The notes beneath the pieces are model-generated. The model saw only the letters and a program-made list of their open reading frames with translations, had not been told where the DNA came from and made no database searches. 64,000 nucleotides of DNA from Yuukianura sp. NJ FZ-2021 (lineage: Eukaryota): contig CM102284.1 of assembly GCA_046563655.1 (NCBI GenBank), positions 7,378,001 through 7,442,000 on the forward strand, written 5' to 3'. The translations under genes were made by a program, and so were the position numbers. Positions 8,301 through 46,262 of the stretch are shown in pieces. The number at the start of each line of letters is the position of its first letter. Position 1 is the stretch's first letter.

Positions 8301-11300
8301 CTATTATTCCATTAGTATCCCAAAACGTAGTAATGGTTTTAAGGAGGGAAGGGTTTTACATTTTCGGCTTTGTCTGAAGAATTTTTTATTTTTATCATGC
8401 TAAAGCGAAGGCAAGCAGCATGCAACTTAACATTTTCTCCCAATTCGGTGCAAAGGCGGAGGAAAAAAACCGGGTTGTCGGTTGTTCTCTCTCCGCCGGA
8501 AAAGTAAATGATAAATGAATGATAATGAGAATTTTTTCGGAATCCCATTATGCCTTCCTCCCATCATCACCACTTCACAATTTCAAAGTTCACGAAGATG
8601 CGGAGCAAAGATTTCATGAAAAAAAAAGTCTAAGCGTCTAGCATTTCTAGAAGTGTCTAGAAATTGTTAGTCGAAAAAACTCTGAGCGGAAGGAAGATGA
8701 TTTCGGCTTGAGTTGTAATCTGCTTGATGACTTTTTGTGGTTGAGCAGAATGCGAAAGGAAGCGCGGGTTATATGAAAATTCCTTCATCTTCTGTCGGTT
8801 GACTTGAGGAAGACATTGTCTTTCTGTGCTCTTTAGGTTTGTTTTTGTCCAATTGTTTCTTAGGTAAGAACTTAAGGATAAGGCGGGAGGAGCAGGATTT
8901 TGAAAATCTAATTTTAGACAAATTTGGGTGGCTTTAGAACCCGGGCATTCTAGCCCCCCTCCCGCCTTTATTAGTTAAGGGCTCTGCAGTTTTCACTGGT
9001 CCCTGTCTCAAATAAATCACGGAAGTCTATTTCGAGGAATGCAATTTTAGCACAGGGGGAAGTGTGCAGGAACCTTAACGCGACGACACAGGAAGTATGT
9101 CTCATTAATCCATTTGCACTTTAGAGAATCAAACAGATGACTTTCAAACAAAAGGCCAATTCAAAAATTGTTTCAACAAATTTAGTTGTGATCTTGAGTT
9201 TTTTTTTTCGATCTGTTTTTAATTTCGGATGGCAAAATTCCATTATTATAGAATTACTTCGTGTTTTTTAATTTCTAAGTAATTTCAATTTCACAAAATT
9301 AAGCTTAGGTTAAGATTCTAAGCGTTTCTGGGTAATATTTTTGCAGTATGTAAATTAGTTGGTTTTCATTTTTATGGAAAATTTCGCGTGTGAATTGAAT
9401 AATTAATGTAATTTTTTCCGTTTCTTGTGAAATATTGTTTGGATTTCGCGCCGCTTACTCAATTTTAGTCTGAATCATAGTTTAACTTTCAAATTCAATT
9501 TGAAAGTTCGGAAGAAATGGTGAATCGAATTCAAAATTCATGAACAAATCCAATTCAAATTAATTTCAATTTCAAGACTTCAAATTATTTCATTTTTTTT
9601 TAAATTATAAGTTGTATTTACACTCTTCCGCAGCAGTTGGCCTAATTTTGAATTTTATGATTCAGAAAATCTAAAATTTTAATTCTGGTCACAATTTAGT
9701 TTGAATGTTCAGCTTATGCCACATGTGCATTTCGTAATCAAAATTTTTACGTGTACGGTTGAGTTACTTCCAAAATTGAAAAAAATATGTTAGGTCGTGT
9801 TATCCTAACCATTTTCTAAAATTGGTAAAAACGCACGTAACGGATCCAATCAATCAGTTTTAGAGACCAAAAGTGAAAGTATAAGTGACATCGCATGATA
9901 ACAGTTTTTGGAAGAGGGTAGGTTAACCTTATTTCTTATGAAAAGTTTCAATTACTTTGTGGTCCGATGAGACCTTTAGCGGCGAATTGGGACCAATAGA
10001 CATGAAACAGTAATGAAATCACAAGACTATCCTATTTTTCTTTACTGAAAACGTATGGAGTTCTCCAGAACAGCGTAATATTGGTCATCCTTGGCAATTA
10101 TCCATTGGATTTGGATTAGGATTAGACAAAGACATTGAAGTACTTTAGGTTATTAGAAGAGCGTGTAGCGTGTAGTTCCTGCGTTGCGTTCTTCCTTGTC
10201 ATTGGTAAGGCCAAATGTCGCAATTGTTCTTTGTCTAATCCCTTCCAGAAGGCTCTTCTGTCACTGGAGATTAGTAAGGTCGCCATTCCCAGTAGCACTG
10301 GAAGCTCCAAAAGACCAAACCGATCTCAACTTACTACAAAATATTGGCTATGTTGGTCCCAAACCTCATTTTTTCAATTCCACATGGCACGGATTAAATT
10401 GATTCATTTTTGGAAAGCATCTGTGGATAACAATGAAATTTGGAATTATTATTATAACTCATACGGTATATTTGGCGGGTTGAAGTAAGCCAAGGTCGAG
10501 TAGGTTGTACCCATGAATGAGCGTTTCAGCGTTGCGCTGTTGTGTTTTTGTCAGGGGGTGGGTACAAGTAGTTAAGGGGGCGTACTTCAAGCGAACAGTT
10601 TGCCAAAAGTGGTGGAAATTAAATGGTGGGAACGTCCGTGGAGTTGATTGTTTACGTCAATAACATTGACGAAAAGTGAAACGTCTGTTTTTGGCAAACA
10701 TTTCTGCAGGGGGAGGAGGGATTGGGAAAATTTTAGCCCAAATTGCTAAAAAGTGGCGAAATTGCTTTGGATTTTGGATAACAATCTTAATTTTTTGCTA
10801 ATTGTTTGTGTTTTTTGGGTTGTTTTGCAGGAGGGAATTCTGGAAACGAAGAGGAGGAAGCCGAAAGAGAAAGTGAAAGTTTGGGGTTCTCGAAAATGAA
10901 TCCGCCGTCGATTCGTGTTCGTAGTGGCTCTCAGCCGGCCATTGTCAATTCGTTCTCTTCCTCGTCAGGTCCCTTTGAACACTCACCCAGTTCACTTCCG
11001 GCCATGAACGGCGGAGGGAGTGGAAAGTACAGTAGTGGTGGGGGTGGTGGGGCAAGTGCTGGTCATTCACCCCCTGACCACAAGTCTCCGAGTGACGACA
11101 GTGGCAACCATGCCCCGAATCCCAAAGTCAATGGCTACTCTCACTCTTCTTCCCAAAATCATCACCAACATCACGATAGCTCCAGTCACAATGGGCATCG
11201 TGGCGACCATCATGGCAGTGGAGGTCATGGAGGTCACTATGGCTACAACAACGGTGGCTACAAGGAGTCCCGTGGAGACGGAGGTGGTGGCTACCACTCG

Positions 11301-14300
11301 AACGGAGGTTCTGGTTACTACCCTTCGAGCAACTACTACCATCACCGGAATGGATACAACTCTGGTGGTGGGTCGTGGCGGGGGAACGAAGGTGGTGGTG
11401 GCTACCGTGGTCGCGGAAGTGGAGACTACCATGGTACATCACGTTTTGGTGGACGGTTCCGGAAACCAAGATCTTACGCTTCAAACTACTATTACAATAA
11501 TGGCCCGTCGAGTTCCGGAGGAGGTGGTGACGAAGGGAACACCAATAGGCCTTCATACAATCAAGGTAACTGACTTTCTTTTTTTATCCTGTACATCATT
11601 CGACACATTTTCGGTTCTACACAAGTGGACCGGACACGTCAAAGATTGAAGTGACATAGTATTGTTCCGGGCCGTTAAGAAATGTTTTCGGAAATGCTCG
11701 ATAACGATTCGGTTCCTCTAGTTGAAACTCCGTTTTCGATGCATTTTCTAGTTTTCAAACAGATTTCGGCTCCTGTTAGTTGAACGGGATTTGCCGAAAG
11801 TTTTATGAAATTTTTCCTACATTTTCGAAAAAACGGTTGCGAAACTTTGCTCGATCATTTCATTTAATAATTTTCAATTTACGTTTTTTAGACTTAAAAA
11901 ACTATATTTAGGTTCACGTTCAATTGAACTGTTCTTGTGGCGGGAAGTTTCAAATTAAGAAAATGAGAAAATGGAAGTCCATTTATTGCGGATGTGAATG
12001 GAACTGTGTGAATTTCATTTGAAACTTTTATAACTTTCCAGGAAATGGTTTAAACTTTTTCCAAAATTGATTTTAAATTGAACATAATGGAAAAATCATT
12101 TTTAAACAGTTCTCAAGGAACAGGAAACTCAACTTTTACAAATTGATGTAAAACCTCCCGTCATTTCTTGTATTTCAAAAGGTCGAAGGTCACATGAACC
12201 CACCTCAGTAAAGTACACAGTTTCCAGTCCTTGTTCTACTTTTGAAACTCAATTAGAGAGTTCAAAAGGCGCTTTTAAGTCTGTAAAATAACAGTTTAAT
12301 TTAGCATAAGAAAAGAGGAAGGACGAATTGAAAAGTATGAACTTATTAGATGCTCAAACAGTGTGAAAATATTTAAATTGTAAGAAAACAAAGCAGCGAC
12401 GAGCTGGAAGCGAAAGTAGAAGTTTGACGTTTGACTGGTTCCTGCTGGCGTGTAAAATTTTCACACCTTACAGAATCCAACAAAAAGTGGGGTGTTTTAG
12501 GTCTTATTGGATTCGTGTTTCTTTAAGTGTTGAAATGAGGAGCTACAAATTGTAAAGTGGGATGTAAAACAATATGAAATTTTGACATGGCAGGAAATGT
12601 TTTTGAAGTAGAAGAAAAGTTTTTTGAAAAGTTGCATTCTTGGGGTTTGCGTTAAAGTTGGTTCGACTGATTTTCAACTGAGGTCACGTTCTCGTTCCGT
12701 TTTTAACAAAAGAAAATTGACGTGTCAAAAAGAAATGGAGGGTATTCGGCAGACGCTGGCGAATGTTTGGCAAAAATTTAGACCGCGTAAACGTAGAACA
12801 TTAAATGGTCGAATTTTTATGCGAATTTCTATAGGGAAAGAAATACTTGGAAATGAAAAAACGAGTAACCTCAAACCTAAAAATCGGCAAAACTACTAAT
12901 AACTTTTTGGACCATAATTTGATTTTGTTGTCATCAAAAGTTATTAATTTCACGATTAAATCTAACTTTAATTACAAAACTGAGCAATATTCCTCAGAGT
13001 ATAATTGGACGAAACAAATTTTGGATTTTTATGGAGGGGTTTTTTATGTCAAAAAAATTATTTCTAAGGTTTAATTGCCCAAAAAATGAGAATTTGATTC
13101 TATCAAACTTTACTAAAATTAGGGTTTGCCCTTTTGCAGTGAAAACCATTCGACTTTTGCGGAAAAACTACAGTTTTGTTAAACTCATTGATACCAATTA
13201 GAACCTTGAAATAATGACGATGTTTTCATTTTTTGTTGTTGTAGAAGAGTATACGAAGATTACTACGCCGCGTCAAGACGTTTTATTCAAGAAAGGCTAC
13301 TTGTCACAACGAAAAACCGTCACTCAAGCATCTTCAGTAGACAGTACGTCGAGCCCTACGACGCCTTCCAATGGCACTCCTGACACCCATTCTACTAATG
13401 GGCTCAATTCCGGTAAGAATTGCAAAATTCTTCTAAAAACTCTATTCAAAAACTGCTCCTGTGCAGGAGTAGCGTTTTGCAACTTGAAGTACCCCCTTAA
13501 TGTCCCCTTCCCCATAAGTACAGGATGCTCTGGGTATTTGATGGGTTGTGGGTAGCAGTGAGTTGGTTGGAAAGTGTTTCTAATGAATTATTGTCATGCA
13601 AGACTCTTGGTTGGAAAACGTTAGGAGATGACAGGTTTCTCGTCTCCAGTCACCCAAGTGACATTTATGTTCTGACACTAATTTCTAAAAGTATTCTTCC
13701 TACCACCTTATTAGTTTTAGTATTGTTCACATGCAAACGGCTTTTCACACGCAAACCAATTCTGATAGCTTAGTAAGTCCTGGATTCGTAATTTTTTGAA
13801 AATTGCCGGCTGAAATTGAAACGCGGGAGAAAGTTGGTGAAAGTTTTTTGCGAACGTAGGAAACAAACTCGCCGATTCCGGAAATTAGTAGTGTGAAAAC
13901 GCAATTCGGCAAAAACGGGATAGTTTTATGGAAACAGAAGTTCGAAAATGATTTTTGATATGGAGTTGGCGGGAAAAATTGAGTTTATTTTTGCTGCTTA
14001 TTTGATAACTCAAAACTGGAGCATTTGAAATCCCAGGTTTTCAAAATTTTGATTATAATTTTTCAAAGTTTAGAATGTTAGCCCGTTGTAGCCATCCTGG
14101 TAACATTTGCCATTGTTGTAGCTATCTTCGCTCCTGCTGATTTGGCTGTATCCAAAGCGGCTTTCACCGCCTCTCCAATTTTAGCATCAATTTTTTCGGC
14201 CTACAAAATTAATTTTTTTGGAACAAGAAATAACGAAATTTTTAATTTGTTGTTTCTTTTTTTAAATGTTACCTCTACTTGAATATCGACGACTGCAGCA

Positions 14301-17300: not shown

Positions 17301-20300
17301 TTTGAAATGTTCCACCACATTAGAATTGGAAAAGAATAGTTTTTAGTTTTAGTTTTTTGAAGACACGTAATTAGGAGTTCAGAAATGCATTAAGGAGGAA
17401 CTATAGCTCATCACTCCATCATCACTTCTTCACTTCTTTTCTTTGTGGTCCAAGTCTTCTTTGAAATGCGTCTTCATTAACATAGCATATCTTCATTCTT
17501 TCCACTTCTTCTTCCTAAAGTAATTGCATTTTCCAGTACTATTTTCAAAAACGAAGTGACAAAGAATCTAGGAATCTATTGTGTTTCTAAAGTTAGAGAC
17601 TCGTATAGCACTGCAAAGACTTCTTTTTCCATCGTTTCTGTAATAACCTCTAAGAGCCAACTTGTGCTTTGCATTTACTGGGGACCTTGTAGTACATTAT
17701 AATAAAATAGGAAGAATAGGGCATTTCGAGAGAAATAATTTTCGGGGAATTGGAGGCCAAGTCAAAGTGAAAGCACGAGGCAAGGAGAAAGTAGCGTGGG
17801 TGGAGCCTTGAGCAAGTTCTCAATTTGTGGGGGAAAATACTAATGGAAAAAGGATTGTAAGAATAGGAATATGGGTTTAGGCTAAATACTTGAAGGCAAA
17901 TGAAATACTTGGTCACAAGAACATGAAAGTATTCTTGTTTGGATATTTTTTGGCGGGAGAAAGCAAAAGGATAAAAGAGCAACATTGGACTTTGGACTGT
18001 ATGTTTCTTTTTTTGGCGGAGAAAGTCGATATCAATTGAAGATTGATTGGACCTCATTAGGGAAAGTTCTCTTTAAACCTTTCAGAGACGACGGATATGT
18101 GACTTTTAGGCTACGCTGAACTTAAGCCTAATGCTTTGGGGAAATGGTGAATAAAAGGAAGTGGGCGAAGTAACTTTCTTTTGACGTTTTTCTTTTTTTC
18201 TCTTTTTTTTGTGGGAAGAGAAAGCGGCGGCCGGTTTAATCGAATGGTTGAAGTAAGGCAGAACGAGAAGAGTCGATTGTACCATGAAAATAAGTTTTTT
18301 CTGGTTGAAGTAGAGAGACGTGACACTTGGCAAGTGAAGGCTTGAAATAAATCATTTACGAATTGACGTTAGGAACGTGTGTGTGGTTAAAACAAAAAGT
18401 CGAGTTCCGGTTGACTTCAACCGGTCAACTTTCTCTTTGCTGCTTTCATTTTTGCTACCTCGGGAGTGGTAGCATTACATTATAGGTAAATCGAATGTTA
18501 GGTAGCGCCGCTCCTATTTTCCTTTTTATTGATGTCAACAAACATGAAATGAATGCGTAGATCGATTTTGAACTTTCCCTGGTAGTATGTGTGATTCAGA
18601 TAACTAGAGTTGAGTTTAGGCCTGTAATTTTGGTTTGTTACGGGAAATGACAACGGTGGTTTAGTTTTTCTCTGAGAGAAAAAGTAGTTTTCTTTTAAAA
18701 GAGAATTGTGACTAATGCTTTTTGTTGGTTTTTAAAGGTCAATCGAATGGGGAGTACTTTGATGCGTACCCTTTGAGTCCCGTGATGATGACTGGTGGCT
18801 ACCCGGCGCCAGTGTACTACCATCTCCCTTATCCAGGAATGGACTGGAACGGACTTCCAACACCTATCTACCCCATTGTGCCTCTCGGTCCACCACCGCT
18901 TGATGATCACCACTCAACAGTTCAGGTAACAACATAATTCAGACCGAAATTGTAAAAGAAAATGCAGAACTTTATTAAGATGGAGAGATTTTCGAAGTTT
19001 GAAAACTTTGAAATGACTAAGGTGTGAAACAGAGAAACGAGTGGAACAAGATACAAATTAGGTGAAAAGTTTTCATTGTTATAACGTATTCAAGGTTCAT
19101 TTTTGAAAATCTTTTGTTTGTTTAGAGCTTTATTAGAACGGCTCAACAAAGAAGCACTTTCCCCTCCTTATCCCTTTGTTTTGTGAAACTTTGTAAGGGA
19201 CTTGGAGAGCGGAGGGCTTACCTAATTGAAGGGCTCTCGAGTTTCATCCGATAATTTTACATTTAAGGGCTCCAAGAATTTGGGAGCTTTGAAAAGCTTT
19301 GGAATAAGGGAAAGTTTTGGTGAAAAGAGAAAGTGATGAGCTTTTGTTTGGCTCCTGGAGGCTTTTCAAAAGGAAGAAGTCAGTTGCTAGCTAAAAGAAG
19401 GAAGTAGGGGAACTCTTGCCAATTTTTACCTGGACTTTTCTAGTTTCTAAACATTCTAAGCTATAGTTGCTCGATGGTCTAAAGTAGTGAAGGAACGAAG
19501 GCAGCTAAGAGTGTATTTCGGATGCTGGTCGTCAGCTTCCTCTTGATGTAAAACCTAAAAGTCCTTGGACGAAAAAGTTGAAAACGCGTGACTCGAGCCA
19601 AAGTCAATGGGGAAGCTTGGTTTCTCCTCGAGTCTTTTCAAGTTCTTTTTGGCAAGCGTTCCGCATTCAAATAATGATTGTGTCGCTTCCGTATGGCTAG
19701 AAAAGCAGCGGAGCTAAAAGAGCAGAGGTGGAAATTTAGAAGATTGTCTATAAAAAGGAGGTGGAGACTTTAAAAGTTAATGGTAATGGCCATGTTCACG
19801 GCTAATTCAAAAAATCTCAGGCACACAATCCACTTTTCGAGACACAAAGTTGTTCAATAGTTGCACCCTTGAAAGTATTAAGTCGACGAAGCTGAAAAGT
19901 TATTGGCTCGGCGTGGGCTGCGAATTTATGAAACTTTTGGAATCCAGGACAAATGTGACGGAAAAAACCGACCTTGCTACATTTTTTTTCGTTTCTGCAA
20001 AAACCGAATTTATGGTGCACAACTAAATCGGTGTTGCAATTGCAATTACGGTTCGATAGGATTAATATGCTTTTTTTTTGTTGTTGTTACAGAATGGTGA
20101 AACACAAAAAGGTGACGGGAGTACTACGAGTAGCGTAAAAAGCGGTAGCGAAAGTTCAGTTGACCCTACTGTGGTAACGGGCAAGGCCGGGGGACGAAAA
20201 GGCGACGGTGTTACATCCACCACTCCCCTGACTAATGGGAACCATAAAAATTCCAAGACGAACAAGAAAAATGCTGGCGAAGGTGGAGCACTTTCGGATT

Positions 20301-23300
20301 CCAGCAGCAGTACTTCCTCCCGAGAGGGCTCTACTTCTACTTTGTCCTCAGCAGCTTCCACCCCTCTGTCTCCCCCCGGGGGTAACGGAGGTCAACTGGT
20401 CATGACCTCTCTGGCCATGTCAATGTCAAGTATGAGTATCGAAGGGCACCACCAACAGGCCCAGCAACTACAACCCCTTCATCCTGCAGGAGGTCTACCA
20501 CCACCTATTCCCGTGTCCCACTTTTTGGCGGCTCACACGGTCCCACCACCTCCGCAGACCCACCACCATCACCATCCTCATCATCATCCTCAACAGATTC
20601 TCTACCATCCGCATCCAGCAACATTTGTCTACGCTCCACCGATTTACAATGGTAAGTCATAAAATTTGTCACAATTTCAGCAGCTTATATTAAGTTGTCA
20701 ACTTTCCCTCGTATTTTCTTTGTTTTTTTCATTTTCAAAATAATTTAAAATTTTGCATTTACTATTCACAAAACGAATCGCTGGAGTCGTTTTAAATTAG
20801 GCCAGCCGTCCAACGTTTTTCATTTCTCCAAAAAATAATGCTTCTGACAGAAACAGTAGAGACGCTAATAATTCCGCTTCTAACTTCGGAAAATTTTTGG
20901 CACTGAACAAACTTTAAAATACGAAATTTCCGAGTGTTGAGTAGTTTATTTTTCAATTGTTGTTTAACTTGTGCTTTAGATATATTTTGCTTGGTTAATG
21001 CACAACTAAACGCTTCTTTTTTCAACGCATGTTTTGCTTTCTCCGTTTTCTCCTCGCTTGAAGTCATGAGTTTACCGTTGTTCAAGTATTACGATTGCTG
21101 ATTTAACTATAATTTTACTAATGGTAGTTTTGATTTTTTCGAAATTTTTTTTAATTACTTTTAAATTTTGGGCAATTTAGCACGATCCTTCATAAAATTA
21201 AGTGAATCTGAGAGAATTAGGTTGATTTTCCACTCTACCTCCTTTTGATTGATTGAGAATTTGAAATTGGCGAAGTAAGTCTTACTTTTGCGTCATTAGC
21301 GCCCGCATGAGGTGCCTGTTAAGAGATGCATTTGAGAGATTGTTCGTGCCAATGCATTCTATTTTGGGAGGCTCTTTGAGGTTCTTCTGCTTCCCAAAAG
21401 TTCCATTAAAACGAAAGAAGTTTCAAAAGAGAGAGCAGAGATCCTAATCCAAAAGCCAGGAAAAGACCAATGTTCAAGATGTTCTGTTAAGAAACAGAGA
21501 TGAAAAAAAGCATTTGTTTAAGTTCCAGCTGCTCAACTAGCATCTTCCTATAGTTTTTTAGAACAAAGTTAAAGAGATTATAGGAGGCAAAAAGAGTTCA
21601 TGCTCAGATCATCAGTGGGACTCTCAGGATCTCTGGTTCTTGAAAAGCCTCATTTACTGCGCAGAGAAGAAGTGAAAGTTAATCATTTGGAAATTGTCTC
21701 CTTAAAACGATTTTTTGTTAGAAGGTTAAAAATACCGAAAGTTAAATTATAGAAGCACGAGTGCATCATTATCCAGCAGCCTACTTTTTGTCTGTATGTG
21801 ATTTTGACTAAAAAGAATTTTGAATTGATTTCTTATTTCTTGTTTTTGAAAGTGGAAAGTTTTGATTTATGTAATCAAAATTTTGTGAAGATTTTGAATT
21901 GGAATGTCAAACCAAAACTCGACTTTGATTTTTTTTAATTTTAAATGAACGTTAGAGTTTTTTGTGTAAAAGAAACTAACCTAACCTTGTCCCTACTTTT
22001 TTTTTGTAGTTAGAAGCTCGGGTGCATTTTGTGGTGTTTTGTTTTTGTAGAATTTGGATTTCTAAAAAGCTTTTTCTTTGTGATTTTTGGAACTAAACGA
22101 CTAGACTTTTTATTTTAATTTTTGATTTTTTTAAATTTTTTCCAAATCCTTGTCCTTGTAGTTTAGCCTAGTTTTGTAAAATACTTGGAAAAGTCAGAAC
22201 AATTTGGAACTTGTGCTGTTGTTATTAGGTGTTGTGCTCCCGATTGCACCCGTTGCTTCTTCTGCCGAGTCTCAGTGCTCTCCAAGTAGTCGAAAAAAAC
22301 GTAAATTGCGTCGGAGAAAGAAAGATGATGGACAGGTTAGTTTCTTTTCTTTTCATTTTTGTTTTGTTTTTGTTTTGTTAAATTTTTATCTTCAAAACAA
22401 TTTTGAATTTTTGTTGTTATTTTTATGATCAAGGAAAAATGCATGAGATTTTTAAGGTTATTAAGCCAAATTCCTATGGGACTATTCTTGGAGCAACTTC
22501 TTTCTCTACGAGCATTTTTTCTATTTTTTCTGCTGTACACCCTACGCTTTCGGAATATTCTTTTGCTGATGTACACTTATTTTGGCTAAATATATTAAAA
22601 TAGCTATGAAAATATTAAAATATAAAATAAAATATTAAGTCTCAATAACTAAAAGAGAAACGCTTTCATACGGAGGAGGATTTCTGAGGATGAGAACTTC
22701 AGAGCAACATTAGGATTTTTATAAGATAAAATAAATTTTATAACGTCAAGATTGTTCTGAAACAATTGTGCAGAATATGCTGAACTTGGACTGTGAAAAG
22801 TGAAAACTTATTAAACTAAAAGTGATTTTTTTTTTCGAATTTCCAGTTGACAGATGAAAGTTCAGCAGAAGAGGACGACGACGGGATTGGTCCTTCAGAT
22901 GAACTCAACGATCCACCTCCAGAAGAACTAATTTCTACTACGAATTCTACTGTAACAAATTTACCTCCAATTACTTCTACTATCACTTCAACTTCATCTT
23001 CTTCTACTCCATCTTCCTCTGGCAGTTCACCTTCCAAATCCTCCAGCTCATCTCAAAATGCTACCAAAAAGGATTTGATTGTCAATGACGAAAACTGTCC
23101 TCAACTTCCAGAAAACGCTAACAAAGACGCCCTTCTTGCTAAACCCATCTCTCAAAACCCGTCTGCACCCAGCAATTGTTCCGAAATTGGTCCAGAACTA
23201 ATCCCAGCTCATCCTCCCGCTGAAGAAACTTTATTAGCTAATAAAATTGTTCAATCGACTCAGATTCCTGTTGCAAAGGACCCAGAAACTGTAAAACCTG

Positions 23301-24622
23301 AACCTGAGGGCTCACATTCGCAAAGCCAAGCGGATCCACAGGGAGAGGCAGAGACTACTAACGCTAATCCAGAAGAAACGAGCTCCGGTGGCCCCTCTTG
23401 TGCTGAACAAACTTCATCTTCATGCAAGAAGAAACCAGCAGTCCTTGGTTTGGATTTAATTACTGCGAAGGAGGAAGGATTAGAAGCAGATGAAGTCTCC
23501 CTGTCCCTTGAACCCAGTTCTCCAGATTCATTCAACACCACCCAGTCTCTCGCAGGGTCAGAGATCCCTTCAGTCTCAATCTCAGAAACAGACTTTATGA
23601 ATAGAACGACTTCGGTCGATGAAGTCGAAGAGGATTTACCACCAGAAGATTTCGGCAGTACTGACCTTGGGTCACCACTCAAAAAGCTCAAAAAGTCATC
23701 ACCACAGTCAAAGTCATTGGAGTCAGAAGAAGGTCAAGTGGAGAGACGCCACACTTTTGAAACCGAACAGTTACTGGAGAGTCATGACTCTCCGAATTTG
23801 ACAAGGCCCCAGGAGGATCTTGACCCGTTGACACCGCAATCAGACGCTGTTCCGATTCCAGCGCTGCTTCAGTCGTTTGACAGCAGTCCACCAGTTACAC
23901 CGAAAGAAACAGAACGATCGCCTAGTCTTGAAGCAATTTTTGAGAGGATATTGGAACCGTCAGTACTTCCTGGGCTCAAGGTCGAGACTCAGGAGACCCT
24001 TGACCCTGAACCTTTGGAACCGACGGAAGTCCTAGCTGAAGAACTCTGTGAAATTGGGGATGCGATTGCAATAGAAGCGGAATTCTGTCAGAGTCGGCCG
24101 TCAATTGCAACAACAGTTCCGCAGTCTCCAGCATCCGATGACGTTGAAAGTATTTCAATTCAAGTACCCAGTTTGACCTTCGTAGATGAAATTCCAGTAC
24201 CAACTGTAACCTTTACGGATGAACTTGAAGAACCGGTTGTGACTTGCGTAGATGAAATACAACTGCCGAGTGTGACCTACGAAGACGAAGTTGAAGAACA
24301 AAGTGTGACCTATGTTGATGCCTCAGAACGAGGTCAAAGTTGTTCCTCTCCACTTGACCGACCTCAATCCATTACCCTTGCTGTAGCAGAGTGGCTCAAA
24401 GTTCGTGGACCGGATGCTCTGACACCCGTCACTCAACTACAAGAACTTTTCCAGGAACTTGAACAAGTTGGGGACAACGACTCCGAAGAAGTTGACAGTG
24501 AAGAGGATGACGACGACTCCCTGTCACTTACAACAGAAGATTTGACAAAGTTAGACAGTTCAAGTGGACAACCCAAAACTACCCCGAGTCCCGCCGCCGC
24601 TTCAAACTGCTGTATCCAATGA
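2392..24622 (+). CDS. Uncharacterised ~1234-aa low-complexity protein: basic N-terminus, G/Y/R-rich region, acidic S/P-rich tail, C-terminal CaaX CCIQ
   Basis: Phase-consistent GT-AG exon chain: 2392-2434, 10831-11565, 13245-13412, 16756-16884, 18738-18925, 20093-20651, 22229-22335, 22847-24622 (3705 nt). ATG 2392 is the first in-frame ATG after TGA 2317, giving MGRKRKTRWRRLSMGGNSG. A 5' UTR acceptor lies at 2060-2061, and a tandem TAGAAG acceptor at 13242-13247. Confidence 0.82.
14078..14341 (-). CDS. Nested antisense small secreted peptide, 63 aa: signal peptide plus Ala/Lys-rich helical mature peptide ending in Gly
   Basis: Exon 14341-14273 gives MKFLHMFLVGMVLLAAVVDIQVE and exon 14200-14078 gives AEKIDAKIGEAVKAALDTAKSAGAKIATTMANVTRMATTG*, joined by a 72-nt phase-0 GT-AG intron. 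TATAAAT 14427-14421, Inr-like TCATTC 14395-14390 and AATAAA 13989-13984 all lie on the minus strand. Confidence 0.85.
14390..14427 (-). promoter_or_regulatory. TATA box plus arthropod initiator of the nested peptide gene
   Basis: TATAAAT lies about 30 nt upstream of TCATTC (TCAKTY consensus), which is about 50 nt upstream of the ATG. Confidence 0.65.
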
Positions 24623-25136
24623 CATGGAAACCTCTGCTTCGTCATTGCCCGTGACCTCTGACCCTGCTGACCCCACCGCCCTAGAGACGTGTGATCCTCA
24701 AAAATTTACTAAATACTATCAATTGGGAGTTGAATCCAAATTTGAACTTGGTTCAGAAGAGGACTTCAAGGATCCCGAAAATGACGTGATTATACAATGT
24801 GATGAAGACGAAGACCTCGGTACCTTTGACCCTGCATCCAGGAAAAGACTGTCACAAGACGATGACGTTCCCATTGACATGCCAAGGTCAAAGGTCACAA
24901 AAGGAGGAGCTCATTGTTACCTGAACCCCTTCTCCCTGGCCCAGGAGCTTGTGGGGGCAGGGGTCAAGGACGAAGGAATCCCTGAATCCTGGGACGTTGA
25001 CACAGAGCCGCTGCCTGACTACGTTTCCCCACCCCCAGACGACTTCCCCCCAAAATTCAGCCATCTTACACCCAAGATCCAGGTCATTCGGACTCAACTG
25101 GAACCTACTACAGGAAGATGTTGTGCGATTCAATAA
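24555..25136 (+). CDS. Overlapping +1-frame ORF in the same terminal exon, ending in a second CaaX (GRCCAIQ); 170 aa from ATG 24624, or a C-terminal extension by frameshift
   Basis: The frame is open from 24555 (after TAG 24552-24554) to TAA 25136 and overlaps the upstream ORF by 68 nt. GC content and acidic/Pro composition match the upstream coding sequence and drop abruptly after 25136. The ATG lies 1 nt after the upstream stop (TGA-C-ATG). Confidence 0.72.
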   Translation, partial: TVQVDNPKLPRVPPPLQTAVSNDMETSASSLPVTSDPADPTALETCDPQKFTKYYQLGVESKFELGSEEDFKDPENDVIIQCDEDEDLGTFDPASRKRLSQDDDVPIDMPRSKVTKGGAHCYLNPFSLAQELVGAGVKDEGIPESWDVDTEPLPDYVSPPPDDFPPKFSHLTPKIQVIRTQLEPTTGRCCAIQ

Positions 25137-27390
25137 ATTCGTAAAAAGTAATTTAATTAGGCAAAATCACTAGTAATTAAGAAAAATACGAGTTAACCCT
25201 CCGGCTTTGTCTCAATCTTCAATTTGAAGTGTAAAGGTTTTTGGCATCTCTTGTTTTTTAATTTCATCATTTGTTATACCTTAAAACCTTTTAACAAAAA
25301 GTTTAAATCGAGACTTGTCAATTTTCTCTTCAAAATTTGATTTTCTATCCAGATTGCCAAAAATCAAAAAAATTGAATTTTGAAAATAAAAAATATTATA
25401 AAAAGCAGGAGATAACTTCTGTTTTGCGGGAGGCAGGCAGGCATAGGCGGGTCTTGTAAATAACGATTTAATTAACTGTTAAATTAAAGTTAGTATAATA
25501 TTAAGTACCTTAAAAATCTAGTAATGTAAAAACTCTAAAGGGATCTTCCTTAGTTAATTGCTCGTTTCTTGAATTTGATCTAGGAGTCTATTCTTGTGCT
25601 TGGGATTTCGGTTGGGTTAATCAACTAAGGTTAGCCTAAATTAAGGAGTTAAGGATTCAATGTTAATTGATTTCCTACTATTTACTTGTAATTAGTTAGT
25701 TAATTGAGGTTAAAGTTAACTGCATTTCATCAGAATGGTTGAGTCTGTCTAGTCTCTCAAGAGAATTCAAAAAGCCAAACAAGGGCTCAGAGGACTCTTC
25801 TCTTCTTCATGGTTGATGGTTAAAAGTTAAAAGTTAAGAATTTAAAAATCTTCTTGAATTAACACTTGTAAAAAACTGTAAAATGTTAAAAACTTAATCA
25901 ACAGTTAGTTAACATTAAGTCACTTCCAAAATTAATCCAAAGTTTTACACCTTACTGCAATTAACAGAGTGTACTACTACAAAAACTTAAATTAATTCGT
26001 TAATCACTTGACTATTGCAAAAGTTTTCTTACTTAATCTCATAATTTTGTGTCAATTTGCTCACATCCGAGAACTAACTTTAATTAGCTATGAATTCGAA
26101 TGAACTTTTAATCGAAACATTTAACTCACTGTGTTCTTCACCTTAATCTCAATCTCAATTAAGTTAAATGTTGTTCTAATCGTAGTTAGCTGTAAGAAAT
26201 ACTACACATTTTTAATGATTGATGTTGTTTAGCCTAAGACCCACTTGAAAAGTTTAGTTTGCCTTTCCTATTCAAACTATTGTATTAATTTGCTCACTAG
26301 CTTTCACTCTTACTTTAATTAATTAGTTTTAGTTGTTAATTATTAGTTAAATTGAGGTCATGAGGTCAGTTGGAAAGCTAACAAAAGAGTGCTAAAATGA
26401 CTCAGGGGAAGCTGGAGTAGAAATCAAAGAACCTTGAACTGTTTTGTTGTGATGTACGTGGAAGAAAAGTTGGAAAGGTCAGAGGTCAAATTTTTGGCAA
26501 TATGCACAGCTTAAACGTTAAATCACAGTACCTACACCTTCAGAGTGCAGAGAATGCGTTGTTGATTTAATTAAAACTAATTAATTAACGTTACTGAACT
26601 GAACGTTACGTAAACTGAACTCTGATGGGAATTGTTAAATACGTGCTATGGAGAAAATCGGAGAAAGCAGACGGATAAGGTTGAAGACGTTAAGGTGGAT
26701 TTGTTAGGTTATACATACGTTAACTTTAAACACCTTCCTTTAGTTATTTTGTGCCTTCGATTGACTATCAGTAATTAACGTTGACTTAATTATTGAACCA
26801 TTTAACTAATTGTAAATTCATTGGCCATCGCTGTCAACTTCAGGAATCGGCTTATGAAACAAAAGCACACATCACAAGGTCAAAATAATTTTAGATTAAA
26901 CTAAATACTTGCCCTGTTGACGTATTTAAAGTTAAATATAGTTATTGTAATTTGATTAATTATAAGTAAAAGTTTTGTTTGTTTTCTCCATAAGAGAGGT
27001 TACTGAAAACCATTGATGGATTCTTCACTTGGAACAGTTTAAAATTAACTTTACAATTAAATGCTCTCACTTTAAAGTGGTTACAACCGTTAATTAAAGT
27101 AGAGTTAATTAAAGTGTGCATGAACACTATAACTAATTGGAATTCACAGAAATCTATTTAAATCTACCAGGTGAATGATTGAAGTTAGGGGAAAACTATA
27201 ATTTAAAATGAAAACATCAAAATATATTACCTTGTAATTGGTTAGCATAAAACGTTATACTGAATTAAAATATTATTGAAAAGGATTAAATCAATCTCTA
27301 CAAGTTTAATTTAATTTCAATTATTAAAAGCATTACACAATTACACAGTACTTATGGAAAATAATAAAAGAGAAAGTCTCCAAATAAAAT
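25137..27390 (+). other. Probable long AT-rich 3' UTR of the large gene
   Basis: No ORF of 60 aa or more for 2.2 kb, very AT-rich with dense TTAA/TAAT words, and AATAAA at about 27363 and 27383. Confidence 0.45.
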
Positions 27391-29416: not shown

Positions 29417-32400
29417 TCATGGGGAAATGGACAAGGCAGACGGTAGTAGTTTGGAATTTTGAGGTGTGGCATTTTCGAAGGATCCCGAGCTTTCCCCACC
29501 TTCAGCTGAATCCGGGTGGAGTGGATTCATCAATTTCTGAAATTAGAAATAAATTCTAAAACATCTTGCGAGTAATTTTGAAGTTTTGAAAACTTTTCGA
29601 CCAAAGCACTAACCTTCCCCATAACGGCAATTGGGAGAGTGTTGATTGCACGAGCAACACGATTTTCAATCAAGTAAAACATGTACTCATCAATGAGAAG
29701 CCTGAGGAGGTGAAATGATCCGAAACTTGCAGCGCTCCGAAGCGTCAAATCGCGAATGACAAGCGAACTAAATTCAGGAAATGTTAATGTTTAACGTCAG
29801 AACAAAACAAAGCTACTACTTTTTTTTTAATTGATAAACTTGCCTGTAAAACGACCATTTGAGAAGAAAATATCTGGCGACAGACGTGTACTTTGGTGTG
29901 TTCTCGTGTGGACGCAAAATTCGATCGACAACAGATTCCAACCATGTTGCCCACTCTTCCAACGACTGATGCTGAGCCAGCGCACCTTTGAAATCCGATT
30001 CCAAATCTGGCACAATGTCCAAGTTGCAGTCGCAAACCCATGCAGCCTGAAAAAAAAACATTTATTTTTCTATTTCCCTTCCCCGCCGTTCAGCACGAAT
30101 AATGCAATAATTCCTTAATAACACCTACCTGTTCCTCAACACACGAAAAATCGACACGATTTAGATCATTTAGCATCTGGTTGATTTGTGTTTCGTTTTC
30201 AAGAACAGCTCTTGCAGCTTGTGCAACATGATTCAGTGATGTGTATCGACGAAGCGTTTGTCCGAAGGCTTTTAGTGCTGTAAGCTTCACTACGATTAGT
30301 TCCTCTGGAAAACCAGTCATCGCTGCTGCCAGAAATCCTTCTACAACTTTTGCAAAGTTTCTAATAGTTTGTGTCATTACACCTGTTCAAAATTTAAAAA
30401 AAACACCGTTACAAACACAAACTTACTCTGAAATTACTCTGCAATTAACAATTCATAATTCAATTTACCAGGAATGTGTCTAAGTACATCAGGCAGGAGA
30501 ATATTGGACATATGTTGATACAGTTGAAAATCAGTTTGACGGACATACTCTTGAATTGGACGTAATGCACACAAAGCGTGAAGTTTCGGTCTAAAAGAAT
30601 TGAAAAAGTAATCGTTAATGTATGTTTCGAGCAGCAAAGCCTTCAAGTCATTGAGTTTAAAAACTTACTTTGGTAGGATGGATTCGTATTGTTGTTGCTG
30701 CTCCAAAACATATCCAGTTGATCCCTCGGCACGAAAAAAGACACGCCAGCGACGCTGGAAATCTGATAATTGGAAGTTAACTGTATCTTCCAACAGTTGC
30801 TGGATAGAACGAAATCACACAAAATATTAGTTTTAACAACATTACAAATTAAGTTATGTAACTCGGTTGTGCAAACTTACACTGCAAAGTTCTCGATACA
30901 AAGACAGGAATACAATCAAATCATCGGGAGTCAAATCTTCAGGAAGGGGAATTTGAAGATCCAAATCTGGTAAACTGTTCATTACATGCGCTGATTCTCC
31001 CAAGTAATGCTGAAAATAAATCAACAATATTCGTGACATTTTCACCGAGAGATTAAGATTTAGCTTGCAAAATTGATCAGTTAGTTACCTGGATTGCGGA
31101 AGCCTCTAGCGAAGTGATGCCATTTAGTAGTTCTGAGTGCTCCCATTTGGATAACTTGGCTTTCTTTGCCGCCGAATGACTATTTCCGCTAGGTGAAATT
31201 GCGACTCCGCGTGGTGGACTTGGATGATAAATTCCATTTCCGTTTCCACGAGTACTCATAAGCTCATCAATCGTCTTCTCATCGACCAAATTGAGAGGAG
31301 ATTCAGGTTTGAGACGGATTCCGTAGTAGTGGTACTTTGAATTTCCTCTTGTTCCGAGTCTTCTAGTGCGTAGTCCCAAAAATACTGAACGAATCAACTT
31401 TCCAAAGGAGGCAGCATTGACAGGATCCAGTTGATGATCTTTACAGTGCTTGATATAGTGATAATACATTGTAGACCTTGGCAGACTCACGCCATCCGCC
31501 CGCTCAAAATTGTCAAGTAACCATTGGACCTGCGTAACAAAACAGAATCAATTAGATAATTCACTCCCGTTCATTTTCCTTGGCCAGACTACAAAATTCA
31601 CGAAAAAAAAAACAACTATCAACTGCAATCACAGATTATAAGGTGAACAAACTGAGCTAAATAAACAAAACTATTTCACATTAATTTAAGAAATAAAAGG
31701 TAAATTGTTAAGGATTTTACAGTGATTGGGCAGGATTTGAGCGTAGCCAGGAGATCATTAGAGGGGAACGCTGTTCTTGACACTTTCTCTGCAATTTTGT
31801 TCATACAGATCATGATGACTAGATCTTCCAGCGGGTTTTCTCCTTGACCAAGCGTGTCATCTTCCAATCCCATGTTCAAGTAATTTGCTTCCTCATTTTC
31901 TTCATCCAACCAAATTGATGTATTTTCTACTCCACCTGCAGTTGTCAGTATCGTGTCAGAGGTATTGGCAGCTTCCGTCACTGACGTTTCCGGCTGAAGT
32001 GTCGTGAACGAATCATCTCCTCCCTTTGCCAGTGCGACGTGAAGATGAAAAATAAAAAGGCAAAAGCAACAAATTAGCAAGGAGAGAAGAATAAGGCCAC
32101 CAAAGGCAGAAGCATTGCCAAATAAAACAAGGACAAAGTGGGATAAATTGACCAATTAGCTAAGCGTGAACCGGTAAACCAAATGAAAAGAGACAGTAGT
32201 GCCGCAGTTGCTAAGTACGACATTTACTTACTGTCGCAGGGGAAACTCGAGTAGCATGATTTGCATTAGCTGTCAAGCTGTCCACGTTAGCATTAGTTGA
32301 GGAATCATTAGAGTCATTGTTTGTAGCTGAAGCTACCAAGTAGGTGATGCCACCCTCCTTTCGATAGTTACAAATCAAAGCGGTTAAATTATTTAACAAA

Positions 32401-43466: not shown

Positions 43467-44199
43467 TTATGAAAACATTTTCGTTTCTGTTCTTCGTCGA
43501 GCTCTGGCTGGAAGTAGTTCTATAATCGTGTTAACTAGAATTGCAAAAACCGATTTGTCGCAGGTAGAATACCGGGTAGCACATTGTCCATTGTCTTCAA
43601 GTCCAACGACAATTGCTTCTTCAAAGTCCGGCTCCACGTTTACAAAGTTTTTACTAAAGGAAAAAAAATTCAAATTTCGATATTTCAATTTTTGAACGCA
43701 ATAATTCACGCAATTGAACTTGATTTAATCACAAATTAACACTCTACAAATCTTACCTAAAGAAATTGTAGGCTTTGGTAACTTTTGGACCGAGATGACC
43801 AAGGGCTCCATGTGCATAGCATGAAATGAAAAGTTGACAAGATCGGTCACTGACCTCGCGTGGGAGGAGCCAGAAGGGGTCACGTCCAAAGTCAGCAATT
43901 TGACCTATTGACCTGGACAGAGTCGGTTCAGTGGCAGGTTGACCCCCCATGACATACTGTCGAGATGGAACGCCAAAGAAGTAGCCAAACGGAGAAGTGA
44001 TGACGCTGAAAAACAGAATCAGCGCTAAACCAATACTGAGAGACACTGAAGTGACGCCAGCGATGGGTCGGATGAAGATATTGGCAATGTCGTAGGGAAC
44101 TGCCATTTGCATGCCCATGTTCAGCGGTTGAACGTACTGGGATTTGGAGGTCACTGAGGTCACCAAAGCCAGAAACAAGAAACATCGCAAGGCTGACAT
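43467..44199 (-). CDS. Family B member B1: signal peptide, TM segment, Cys-containing C-terminal domain
   Basis: Exons 44199-43757 and 43653-43467; motifs SCQLFISCYAHG and GLEDNGQCATRYSTC. Confidence 0.82.
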
Positions 44200-44514
44200 T
44201 TTTTGAAACTTTTTCGAAAATTTCAAAAATTTGAGATGTAAGGTCACGCGCCCCGTTTTACTGACTGAACTAAAGTTAGGTTTTGACTTTTGGCTAAACG
44301 CGAAAACACGGAACATTTTCTTAATTGAAGGTCATTGTTCTCTCGTATTTTTAGAAAATTAATTTCAAATTAACGACTTTTCATAAATTGAAAACTTGAA
44401 AAACTTGAACCTGTACCTTCAAACACCAAAGCTTTCAATTGGTTTTCAACTCAATTAACCCTCATGCTCGTCCGAACTTTTTCCAAATTTCAAAAAATTC
44501 CAAAATCGGCAAAT

Positions 44515-45228: not shown

Positions 45229-45947
45229 TTATGTAAACATCGTCGTTTCTGTTCTTCGTCGAGCTCTGGCGGGAAGTAATTGGATAATCGTGTTAACTAA
45301 GATTGAAAAAACCGATTTGTCGCAGCTGGAATACCGGGTAGCACATTGCCCATTGTCTTCAAATCCAACTACAATTGCTTCTGCAAAGTCCGGTTCCACG
45401 TTTACAAAATTTTTACTAAAAAACAGAAAACAGGGATTTAATTTAGAAATATGAGATTTTTAGCATAAGTTGAATACTTTATTCTGACAAGATTTTGATT
45501 TTACCTAAAGAAATTGTAGACTTTTGTAGCTTTTGGGTCAAGATGACCAAGGGCTCCATGTGCATAGCATAAAATGAAAAGTTGACAAGATCTGTCACTG
45601 ACCTCGCGTGGGAGGAGCCAGAAGGGGTCACGTTCAAAGTCTGGAATTTGACCTATTGACCTGGACAGGGTCGGTTCAGTGGCTGGTTGACCCCCCATGA
45701 CATACTGTCGAGATGGAACGCCAAAGAAGTAGCCAAACGGAGAAGTGATGACGCTGAAAAACAGGATCAGCGCTAAACCAATACTGAGAGACACTGAAAT
45801 GACGCCAGCGATTGGTCGCTTGAAGATGTTGGCAATGTTGGCCGGAACTCCCATTGTCATGCCCGTGTTCACTGGTTGAATGTACCGGGATTTGCAGGTT
45901 ACTGAGGTCGCCAAAGCCAAAAACCAAAAACATCGTAATACCAACAT
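45229..45947 (-). CDS. Family B member B2, a recent duplicate of B1
   Basis: Exons 45947-45505 and 45415-45229 have the same lengths as in B1, with long identical peptide blocks. Confidence 0.82.
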
Positions 45948-46262
45948 TTTTCGAAAAATTTTTGAAACTTTTTTGGAAATGTGAAAAAATTGAAATGTAA
46001 AGTCACTCCCCGTTTTACTGACTGATCCAAGGTAGGGGTGTGTGACTTTTGGCTAAACTCGAAAAAAAACGGAACTTTCATTGTTCTGTCGTATTTTTAG
46101 AAAATTAATTTCAAATTAACGACTTTTCAAAAATTCAAAAGTTCAAAAACTGAAAACTGCAACTTCAAACAGAACTTTCCATTTTCTCTCACTCATTTGA
46201 CCATCGTGCTATCAACTTTTCCAAAATTTCAAAAAAAAAATTCAAAATTGGTGAACTTAAAA

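Follow-up and report, generated by a model that had tools for sequence, protein, structure and literature searches.

A single coding exon split long ago into two reading frames, each ending in a CaaX box, and conserved in this form in Yuukianura sp. and two further species

The terminal exon of a gene in Yuukianura sp. NJ FZ-2021 is split into two successive reading frames, both of which are coding and both of which end in a CaaX box, and this arrangement is conserved in two further species. The locus lies in a window of 64,000 nucleotides which was analysed as a whole (GenBank assembly GCA_046563655.1, contig CM102284.1, positions 7,378,001–7,442,000; coordinates below are those of the window and all features are on the forward strand). 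The split is an old, conserved fission of a single coding exon, because the two further species share the layout while named springtails have one fused ORF. Our best explanation is that the second reading frame (ORF2) initiates separately, by stop-restart or from a transcript of its own, and we give this a rough probability of 0.45.

The frame-A part of the terminal exon (22847–24622, stop included) runs from LTDESS to AAASNCCIQ within a stop-to-stop ORF of 22826–24622. It closes with CaaX box A, CCIQ (TGC TGT ATC CAA, 24608–24619), which comes directly after a conserved (A/S)(A/P)SN motif and is followed by the stop codon TGA (24620–24622). The +1 frame is open from 24555 to 25136 (193 codons), is bounded upstream by frame-B stops at 24543–24545 and 24552–24554, and ends ...TTGRCCAIQ-TAA; any +1 shift would fall in the stretch upstream of its first ATG which overlaps the end of frame A (24555–24623). 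This ATG (24624–24626, context GAC ATG G) is placed 1 nt past the TGA, with TGA-C-ATG spanning 24620–24626, and an out-of-frame AUG lies ahead of it at 24619. Read from its ATG, ORF2 would begin (M)ETSASSLPVTSDPADPTALETCDPQK and has 170 codons plus TAA (24624–25136). Its homologous counterpart in the fused springtail proteins is their C-terminal domain, and the CCAIQ at its own C-terminus (25119–25133) consists of a second Cys and CaaX box B (CAIQ, 25122–25133). Both ends have a Cys fourth from the C-terminus, then three residues and a stop (CCIQ-TGA and CAIQ-TAA). A poly(A) signal, AATAAA (25132–25137), overlaps the ORF2 stop and is the sole AATAAA or ATTAAA in 24400–25384, and GC remains at 0.41–0.57 through ORF2, dropping to 0.25–0.30 only past 25136. 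As no poly(A) signal was found between the UGA and 25132 and the composition is unbroken, the mRNA should run through ORF2. The features on which the initial annotation was built, namely both ORF ends, TGA-C-ATG, the motif CCC_AAA_ACT (24572–24580, read as frame-A codons CCC AAA ACT) and the complementary CAATGAC (24617–24623) and GTCATTG (24641–24647), are all present as it described them, and the stem formed by the last two appears in the predicted fold of 24560–24660.

Our six-exon model of the host gene places exon 1 at 10896–11565, from the ATG (MNPPSIRVRSGS...) to the donor AAG|GTAACT, followed by exon 2 bearing EEYTKITTPRQDVLFKKGYL (13245–13412), exon 3 (SNGEYFDAYPLSP...; 18738–18925) which has a match in the N-terminal region of P0010, a protein of Folsomia candida, a Ser/Pro/His-rich exon 4 (20093–20651), and exon 5 with the basic stretch SRKKRKLRRRKKDDGQ (22229–22335). 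The model is in frame over 3468 nt (1155 codons) with zero internal stops, and gives a frame-A product of 1155 aa as a minimum in place of the ~1234 aa first proposed. The protein is predicted to be mostly disordered, and AlphaFold2 modelling of ORF2 (8 sequences) produced two short helices with a mean pLDDT of 51 and a pTM of 0.16, a model of insufficient quality for searching by fold. No Pfam family was found for ORF A, ORF2, the upstream exons, P0005 or P0010; the sole hit, a weak Daz-repeat match in exon 3, scored under the Pfam cut-off (20.4 versus 27 bits). A search of the ESM Atlas using the C-terminal part of P0010 as the query gave no usable match, and among the titles and abstracts covered by a literature search, neither this gene nor any double-CaaX split gene is described.

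The frame break is not an artefact of assembly. The junction is crossed without a gap by contigs of four DNA runs from two studies, three of these runs being one sample (X1 record 1, 22800–24916; X2 record 11, 23921–24696; X3 record 20, 23911–25198; and X5 records 28–30, 24318–24730), and the indel table of the DNA-run contigs has no entry between 23789 and 25241. A 1-nt assembly error fusing the ORFs, raised as a concern when the locus was first annotated, is ruled out by these gap-free contigs. Within the frame-A exon part, indels in other samples amount to 3 nt in total.

An exhaustive homologue search returned six matches to ORF2. A search restricted to near lengths gave only P0001 and P0002, and one among longer proteins scored none of 763 candidates, which was a miss of sensitivity as the exhaustive search found long relatives. 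Frame-A orthologues are P0007, frame A of L001, P0003, P0005, P0006, P0008 and P0010. In springtail orthologues (ORF calls P0003 and P0006, and annotated proteins P0005 from Orchesella dallaii and P0010 from F. candida) both parts form one ORF, reading ...NPW(V/A)APSN-KSGS... on to CDPQKF...CCSIQ, while all three species with a short ORF2 have the split layout, in which a CaaX box and TGA are followed by a +1-frame ATG and an ORF2 with a CCxxX end. The junction reads NCCIQ-TGA-C-ATG in the window and NCAIQ-TGA-GCGAGAG-ATG in L001 (TGA at 626–628, with the ATG 7 nt past it). For the third species, the tail of P0007 (NVSAAPSNCSIQ*) and the head of P0002 (MFPLPPPIVQFS) can share one DNA only with a +1 shift (this joint fit being one of 52 offset and shift combinations tried); both are found on one 5008-base contig, and we infer the junction, a TGA with the ATG 4 nt on, from the overlapping peptides. 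In the three species frame A closes with CCIQ (window), CAIQ (L001) and CSIQ (P0007), and ORF2 with CCAIQ, CCLLQ and CCIIT; CCSIQ or CCVIQ is found at the C-terminus of the fused orthologues. The final residue is Q at both window ends and at eight of nine further ends, the exception being the T of P0002. The initial annotation held that two CaaX ends were unlikely to occur by chance, and the recurrence of the pattern in two other deeply diverged species bears this out; the frame break and both CaaX ends, whose conservation it had proposed to test, are kept in the three species, and the slip site and stem are not.

The two frames are both under selection. Synonymous sites are saturated between the window and L001 (pS 0.61–0.83), and despite this ORF2 is open across 170–204 codons in three species. 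Over the 170 codons of ORF2, comparison with L001 gives pN 0.30 and pS 0.61, with dN/dS at ~0.3, and the two Cys of the CC end, together with other motifs, are invariant in all eight aligned sequences. Nine SNPs are listed in ORF2, of which seven are synonymous in frame B versus none in frame A (one would make a stop if read in frame A), and the binomial probability of this is ~8e-4, assuming 23% synonymous sites as taken from the window–L001 comparison. The frame-A terminal exon part has 24 listed SNPs, of which 9 are synonymous when read in that frame. ORF2 is coding, and since selection maintains the two ORFs along with their CaaX ends, both products should be made, in agreement with the earlier claim that both frames are probably translated.

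Endings of the CCxxX type are also found in PRL phosphatases (CCIQ) and Ykt6 (CCAIM), and Cys or Ser at the a1 position is accepted in known CaaX substrates. At this position CAIQ fits the aliphatic rule, CCIQ has Cys and CSIQ has Ser. PDE6A is farnesylated, and the X residues of farnesyltransferase type are S, M, A and Q, according to passages of PMC11254824; our ends resemble the farnesyltransferase targets treated there in having a Cys four from the end and X = Q. There is no sequence relationship between this protein and the PRL, Ykt6 or PDE6A families. The neighbouring Cys of the CCxxX ends could be the site of a second lipid.

We propose that the terminal exon was ancestrally undivided, encoding a single long and largely disordered protein with a CCSIQ end, and that in the lineage of the window this exon became split into two ORFs. 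ORF A would now stop just past the conserved APSN motif, having gained its own farnesylation-type CaaX box (CCIQ), and ORF2 (170 aa, +1 frame) would retain the ancestral C-terminal motifs and CCaaX end and be made independently, with translation starting at the conserved AUG 1–7 nt past the UGA. The outcome would be two separately prenylated, membrane-targeted proteins replacing one; prenylation, like the route by which ORF2 is translated, is our inference. The likeliest route, which we put forward tentatively, is termination-reinitiation, in which the ribosome ends ORF A and then restarts on a dicistronic mRNA; otherwise ORF2 may come from a shorter transcript starting inside the exon, which seems to us rather unlikely.

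Separate initiation of ORF2 is favoured by the conserved ATG adjoining the stop. In all three species the candidate restart AUG lies within ~20 nt of the stop codon (at 1 and 7 nt, and at 4 nt by the peptide reconstruction), and of the two alternatives offered by the initial annotation it is stop-restart that fits better, with the ATG following the TGA so closely in three of three species, while its frameshift site is not supported. The residues around the ORF2 Met vary among species (ND-M-ET, SERE-M-QV and SEV-M-SQ) and the distance from the Met to the conserved DSxPxSL block differs by ~17 codons, so that the Met tracks the stop and not the domain; since synonymous sites are saturated, retention of the ATG next to the stop is also not mere inertia. 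In both the window and L001 the -3 position relative to the ATG is a purine, as it would be in the third species given that the preceding codon is Val (GTN). Between stop and ATG the three species have 1, 4 or 7 nt, each of which preserves the +1 relation (3n+1). A frameshift or a splice would require this constancy but pure reinitiation would not (~1 in 9 by chance), which counts against the latter. Also against restart are the out-of-frame AUG that comes first in the window (24619) and the lack, in the 150 nt ahead of the window ATG, of the TURBS core UGGGA, a motif complementary to 18S rRNA; L001 has one copy at 511, 125 nt upstream of its ATG. Folds upstream of the stop have z-scores of +0.70 in the window and +1.63 in L001, and no RNA structure shared at the junction was found, the window folds (z +0.09 to +1.05) being no better than shuffles. 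That restart is used in a cellular animal mRNA after an ORF of >1100 codons, and has been kept since before synonymous saturation among three hexapod species, is possible though somewhat doubtful.

A +1 frameshift on the CAA or CAG codon that directly precedes the UGA, as in antizyme, is an unlikely alternative, by which some ribosomes would read GAC or GAG and produce a ~1326-aa form of ancestral type ending in CCAIQ, while the remainder would stop and yield the shorter product with the CCIQ end. Three of three species have ORF2 in the +1 frame though the stop–ATG stretch varies (1, 4 and 7 nt), the stop is UGA in all three with a preceding CAA or CAG, and a +1 shift at the UGA would rebuild the ancestral fusion. 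In antizyme, shifting is known to be stimulated by a stop codon on the 3' side of the shift site (as set out in passages of PMC1874602), and in L001 a hairpin beginning at the UGA has a predicted stability of -40.5 kcal/mol (z -3.8, with none of 200 shuffles as stable). However, that hairpin (from the fold of 626–726) lies mostly within a lineage-specific stretch which is absent from the window and not alignable, and folding of 24620–24720 in the window predicts no 3' structure (z +0.09). Conservation of CAR-UGA adds little, as a CaaX box with X = Q followed by a stop already demands it, and a P-site CAA or CAG is unable to re-pair in the +1 frame. Such a shift also leaves the conserved AUG after the stop without a role, antizyme ORF2 being reached only via ORF1. 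A further point against it is that antizyme is, to our knowledge, the only well-established +1 case among animal cellular genes. The version of the initial annotation, a +1 slip of tRNA-Lys on CCC_AAA_ACT aided by the stem CAATGAC/GTCATTG, we consider highly improbable. Motif and stem exist in the window, where frame B is open from 24555, but L001 lacks the motif (the homologous stretch is GGG CAC CTC AAG AGT AGT TCC CCT), as does the third species to judge by its frame-A peptide, which reads SGQRENVSAAPSN. The stem proposed over the stop also proved no more stable than shuffled sequence (24560–24660, z +0.70; equalled or bettered by 152 of 200 shuffles), and L001 shows nothing equivalent at that location.

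Splicing is the commonest cause of a frame change inside a eukaryotic gene, and could join the frames through a weak frame-A donor (e.g. A|GTGGAC, 24563/24564) and the acceptor CCCTAG|AG (24684/24686), or by joining an upstream exon directly to that acceptor, either route giving an isoform with the ORF2 C-terminus. The donor 24563|24564 and acceptor 24684|24685 are in phase, as is an analogous L001 pair (581|582 and 693|694), acceptors at 24685 and 24687 match the phases of upstream exon ends, and a C-rich tract lies ahead of the candidate acceptor AG. Nevertheless, we regard both routes as quite improbable. All five real donors of the gene have G at -1 and GT(A/T)A, whereas the candidates are CAA|GTGGAC and CGA|GTGGGC; the 20 nt before the AG contain 10–15 T in the five real acceptors and 3 in the candidate; the window has zero AG between 24589 and 24682; and at the position corresponding to this acceptor L001 lacks an AG (GCATTGACTTGT). 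The would-be intron has exon-like GC, it holds in frame B a block common to the three species (ETSASSL, DSAPSSL or DSNPMSL, then P.P.A.L), and the only SNP listed within it (24641) is a synonymous change when read in frame B. With such weak donors, a T-poor acceptor and no conserved splice signals, the earlier view that no convincing intron bridges the frames holds. It is barely credible that ORF2 is a relic which is no longer translated, left behind in the 3' UTR after a frameshift mutation truncated the gene. Frame A carries its own CaaX box, so the truncated protein could suffice alone, but a relic is contradicted by an ORF2 still open for 170–204 codons in three species at synonymous saturation, by dN/dS of ~0.3 and 7/9 synonymous SNPs, and by the invariance of the CC and other motifs in 8/8 sequences.

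Separate initiation at ORF2 can be set against several known systems. Among nuclear genes of arthropods, Drosophila stoned is dicistronic. Dicistronic arthropod genes, and the conserved bicistronic loci of green algae presented in the abstracts of PMC11892635 and PMC7896298, likewise have two conserved ORFs, here probably on one transcript, but the algal loci are described in those abstracts as using leaky scanning past a short first ORF, which cannot work behind >1100 codons, and our ORFs differ in deriving from a single exon that underwent fission and in lying 1–7 nt apart. Restart after a long ORF needs the stop and start within ~20 nt and is known in viruses and the insect retrotransposon SART1; after an ORF of >1100 codons reinitiation is rare and not established for cellular animal mRNAs, so far as the relevant passages of PMC10275272 go. 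Calicivirus VP2, influenza B BM2 (TURBS) and SART1 (UAAUG) similarly have a long ORF and then an AUG within a few nucleotides, and in these accounts termination-reinitiation produces two proteins from one mRNA at a set ratio, as we propose here. The present case differs from those described in being a cellular animal gene with a stop and start which do not overlap and with two ORFs that are halves of one ancestral protein; and, unlike TURBS systems, the window is without the UGGGA motif and no shared structure was found. Antizyme (UCC-UGA), as outlined in passages of PMC1874602, also has an ORF1 ending in UGA, an overlapping +1 ORF2 and a layout conserved in distant species, but its ORF2 is without a start of its own and is reached only through ORF1, while here there is an ATG 1–7 nt past the stop in three of three species. 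In addition, the last codon here is CAA or CAG, which is not a known shifty codon, our folds (modelled without pseudoknots) revealed no conserved 3' pseudoknot or 5' element, and it is ORF1 that is long and ORF2 that is short.

Very few cases are found of conserved and selected non-standard decoding in animal nuclear genes. This locus offers the ancestral fused state in named springtails and the derived split state in three species, with a lipid-anchor signal on each half as a functional read-out and a junction of just 1–7 nt. If ORF2 is reached by a +1 shift at the UGA, antizyme would be joined by another type of +1 recoding in animal cellular genes, and if there are two transcripts, it would be a gene fission whose new C-terminus acquired its own CaaX box. 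If stop-restart is true, long-ORF reinitiation would be used and selected in a cellular gene, making two proteins, each farnesylated on its own, in proportions that translation would set, as a cellular counterpart of viral stop-restart.

The window is eukaryotic and AT-rich (GC 0.37, without N), and the two frames and two CaaX ends that the initial annotation had placed at one exon are present as claimed. The stop-to-stop ORF at 22826–24622 (+), referred to here as frame A, ends in ...AAASNCCIQ with a TGA at 24620–24622, and the +1 frame is open over 24555–25136 (+) and ends in ...TTGRCCAIQ-TAA; the ATG of this second ORF (ORF2) is at 24624–24626 (+), the junction reading TGA-C-ATG. We modelled the frame-A gene as six forward-strand exons (10896–11565, 13245–13412, 18738–18925, 20093–20651, 22229–22335 and 22847–24622) with five GT-AG introns, and the reading frame is kept throughout to a product of 1155 aa ending in CCIQ, rather than the ~1234 aa given before, a figure which may cover exons beyond the six. 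The sole AATAAA/ATTAAA within 24400–25384 sits at 25132, where it overlaps the ORF2 stop. An 11-codon ORF at 24619–24654 runs across the start of ORF2; its out-of-frame ATG shares bases with the frame-A stop (ATGA) and would be relevant to any translation of ORF2 from a transcript starting upstream of it. The PY-rich exon 3 region (18716–18934 (+), GYPAPVYYHLPYP) gives a weak Daz-repeat match under the Pfam cut-off (E 0.00055, 20.4 vs 27 bits).

Elsewhere in the window, three neighbouring ORFs at 43753–44331 (-), 45501–46052 (-) and 46101–46793 (+) encode small proteins that resemble one another, with a hydrophobic stretch in common and a CxxxxxCYAHG-like motif at the C-terminus, and look like a local tandem gene family. 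The ORF at 31077–31547 (-) includes a stretch which we take to resemble an RFX-type DNA-binding domain (…YYHYIKHC…AASFGKLIRSVF…KYHYYGIRLK…). A low-complexity stretch at 56667–57266 reads as a long run of Ser on the + strand and as a Glu/Lys-rich run on the - strand, where the ORF is a candidate coding exon for an acidic protein.

We compared the window with assembled contigs, not raw reads; they come from two studies and four DNA runs, of which three are one sample. Contigs from all four cross the junction without a gap (X1 record 1, 22800–24916; X2 record 11, 23921–24696; X3 record 20, 23911–25198; X5 records 28–30, 24318–24730), and no indel is recorded between 23789 and 25241 in the table from this comparison; those that fall within the frame-A exon each amount to 3 nt (23039; 23783–23788). 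Differences from the window at several positions show that the runs do not merely duplicate the assembly, and the gap-free contigs rule out an assembly artefact such as an indel error as the cause of the frame break. In the second study, one low-depth X5 contig jumps back by 352 (25078 to 24727); its organism may have a tandem duplication there, or the assembly path may have looped. Within ORF2, at 24887–25032, a number of short alternative contigs occur in X1 and X2 and the summed depth is doubled, which suggests two haplotypes; the differences listed there (24959 and 24989) are synonymous in frame B, the frame of ORF2.

Both frames are coding. The 40 differences listed, out of 53 between contigs and window, comprise 24 in 22847–24619, nine in 24624–25133 and seven after 25136. 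Seven of the nine listed in ORF2 are synonymous in frame B (binomial probability ~8e-4 for at least 7/9, by our own arithmetic assuming ~23% synonymous sites), and read in frame A none is synonymous and one would create a stop. In the frame-A exon, 9/24 are synonymous in frame A vs 4/24 in frame B, a weaker constraint than that of ORF2, as expected of a low-complexity region. GC is maintained at 0.41–0.57 across ORF2 and falls to 0.25–0.30 only past 25136. Against L001, a metagenome contig from a second species, ORF2 (170 codons) has pS 0.61, pN 0.30, dS 1.28, dN 0.38 and a ratio of 0.30, and the frame-A tail (133 codons) has pS 0.83 (saturated) and pN 0.27; the split is therefore old and maintained by selection, and no recent lesion.

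An exhaustive HMMER search with ORF2 matched six proteins, the closest being two short stand-alone ORFs, P0001 (204 aa) and P0002 (203 aa). In P0003 (1093 aa), P0005 (1299 aa, from Orchesella dallaii) and P0006 (675 aa) the match lies at the extreme C-terminus. These three and another long one, P0010 (1613 aa, from the P0004 cluster and named as a hypothetical protein of Folsomia candida), carry the frame-A exon motifs EPSSPDSLNTxQSxAGSE, MNRTxSxDEVEEDLP and RPxSITxAVxEWLK upstream and end in ICCSIQ or CCVIQ. P0003 is probably one continuous ORF in genomic DNA, because its start resembles read-through of an intron end (…LSIFQ/LTDEN). From these relatives, the window probably belongs to a springtail or something closely related.

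In L001, the contig of P0001, frame A ends in ...SSSPSNCAIQ-TGA (stop at 626–628), and an ATG at 636, seven nucleotides past the TGA, opens a +1 ORF ending in GGRCCLLQ. A frame-A exon search found P0007 (463 aa, ending in ...SAAPSNCSIQ) from the third species; its source contig, like that of P0002, has 5008 bases. We scripted 52 tail-length and shift combinations, and one DNA can encode both the P0007 tail (NVSAAPSNCSIQ*) and the P0002 head (MFPLPPPIVQFS) in exactly one, with a +1 shift; the P0007 stop must be TGA because the next P0002 residue is E, and the second M of P0002 is 4 nt past it. The layout is common to all three short-ORF2 species (a CaaX box with X = Q, TGA, a +1-frame ATG after 1, 4 or 7 nt, and an ORF2 ending in CCxxX), and the frame break and both CaaX ends are thus conserved. 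In the tail alignment the new CaaX box comes immediately past the motif (A/S)(A/P)SN, where the fused orthologues read on (...NPW(V/A)APSN-KSGS...).

No part of the protein matched a Pfam family, the Atlas search gave no match, and most of ORF2 is disordered in the AlphaFold2 prediction (pLDDT 51). The short conserved ORF2 motifs are CDPQKFxKYYQxGV, EE(I/L/V)GT(F/Y)DP, YxNPxSLAxELV, SWDVDxEPLPxY, TPxxxVIR and the CC end, with the two C-terminal Cys invariant in 8/8 aligned sequences. Prenylation of these CaaX ends would be predicted, X = Q being described as typical of farnesyltransferase targets in passages of PMC11254824.

The CaaX box, UGA and nearby AUG are conserved at the junction in three species, and an ORF2 start of its own is favoured because the AUG keeps close to the stop although the spacing to the conserved domain varies by ~17 codons and the flanking residues differ; by our own estimate, the probability of an ATG no more than three codons from the stop is ~0.05 per species (Met at ~1.5% of codons). 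ORF2 would then be translated by separate initiation at the AUG adjoining the frame-A UGA, to which we give a probability of about 0.45. Stop-restart is the likelier of the two forms this might take, though rather unlikely taken singly, and a transcript of its own is improbable. Restart after a long ORF is described in parts of PMC10275272 for viral cases, with stop and start within about 20 nt, and for the insect retrotransposon SART1. Counting against simple restart, we found no UGGGA motif in the window, and folding against shuffles found no RNA structure near the stop common to the window and L001. L001 itself has a very stable hairpin at 626–726 (-40.5 kcal/mol, z -3.8, 0/200 shuffles equally stable) which starts at the TGA and encloses the ORF2 ATG, and its core (about 648–700) is within a ~51-nt stretch missing from the window. 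Also against simple restart, every spacer leaves ORF2 in the +1 frame, for which chance would give about 1 in 9.

Exactly such spacing would be needed for an antizyme-like +1 shift at the UGA, going by the relevant part of PMC1874602, but the antizyme ORF2 has no start of its own, unlike ORF2 here. The last codon, CAA or CAG, is not known to be shifty, and we regard this kind of shift as unlikely. The slip site CCC AAA ACT and the complementary 7-nt pair of the initial annotation both occur in the window, but the site is absent at the homologous place in L001 (GGG CAC CTC AAG AGT AGT TCC CCT) and the third species (SGQRENVSAAPSN), and the stem over the stop does not exceed chance expectation (z +0.70 for 24560–24660, +1.05 for 24600–24700 and +0.09 for 24620–24720); a shift at this site is highly improbable. 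What stands of that interpretation is translation of both frames with selection on both CaaX ends, and not the specific frameshift signal. Splicing of frame A to ORF2 is poorly supported by the sequence and improbable: no AG occurs in the window between 24589 and 24682, the sole candidate acceptors (24684 and 24686) follow 3 T in 20 nt vs 10–15 T at the five real acceptors of the gene, L001 has no AG at the homologous position, and the candidate donors (CAA/GTGGAC in the window, CGA/GTGGGC in L001) have neither the -1 G nor the GT(A/T)A seen at each of the five real donors. The would-be intron also holds, in frame B, a three-species block (ETSASSL / DSAPSSL / DSNPMSL, then P.P.A.L.TCDPQKF). 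That ORF2 is an untranslated relic is scarcely credible, and other explanations take the remaining odds.

The original observation is confirmed and strengthened by the comparison between species. Titles and abstracts in the literature gave no earlier description of the gene or of the double-CaaX split arrangement, and the locus, which belongs to an unannotated gene family, would be a variant either of dicistronic/stop-restart expression or of antizyme-like recoding.
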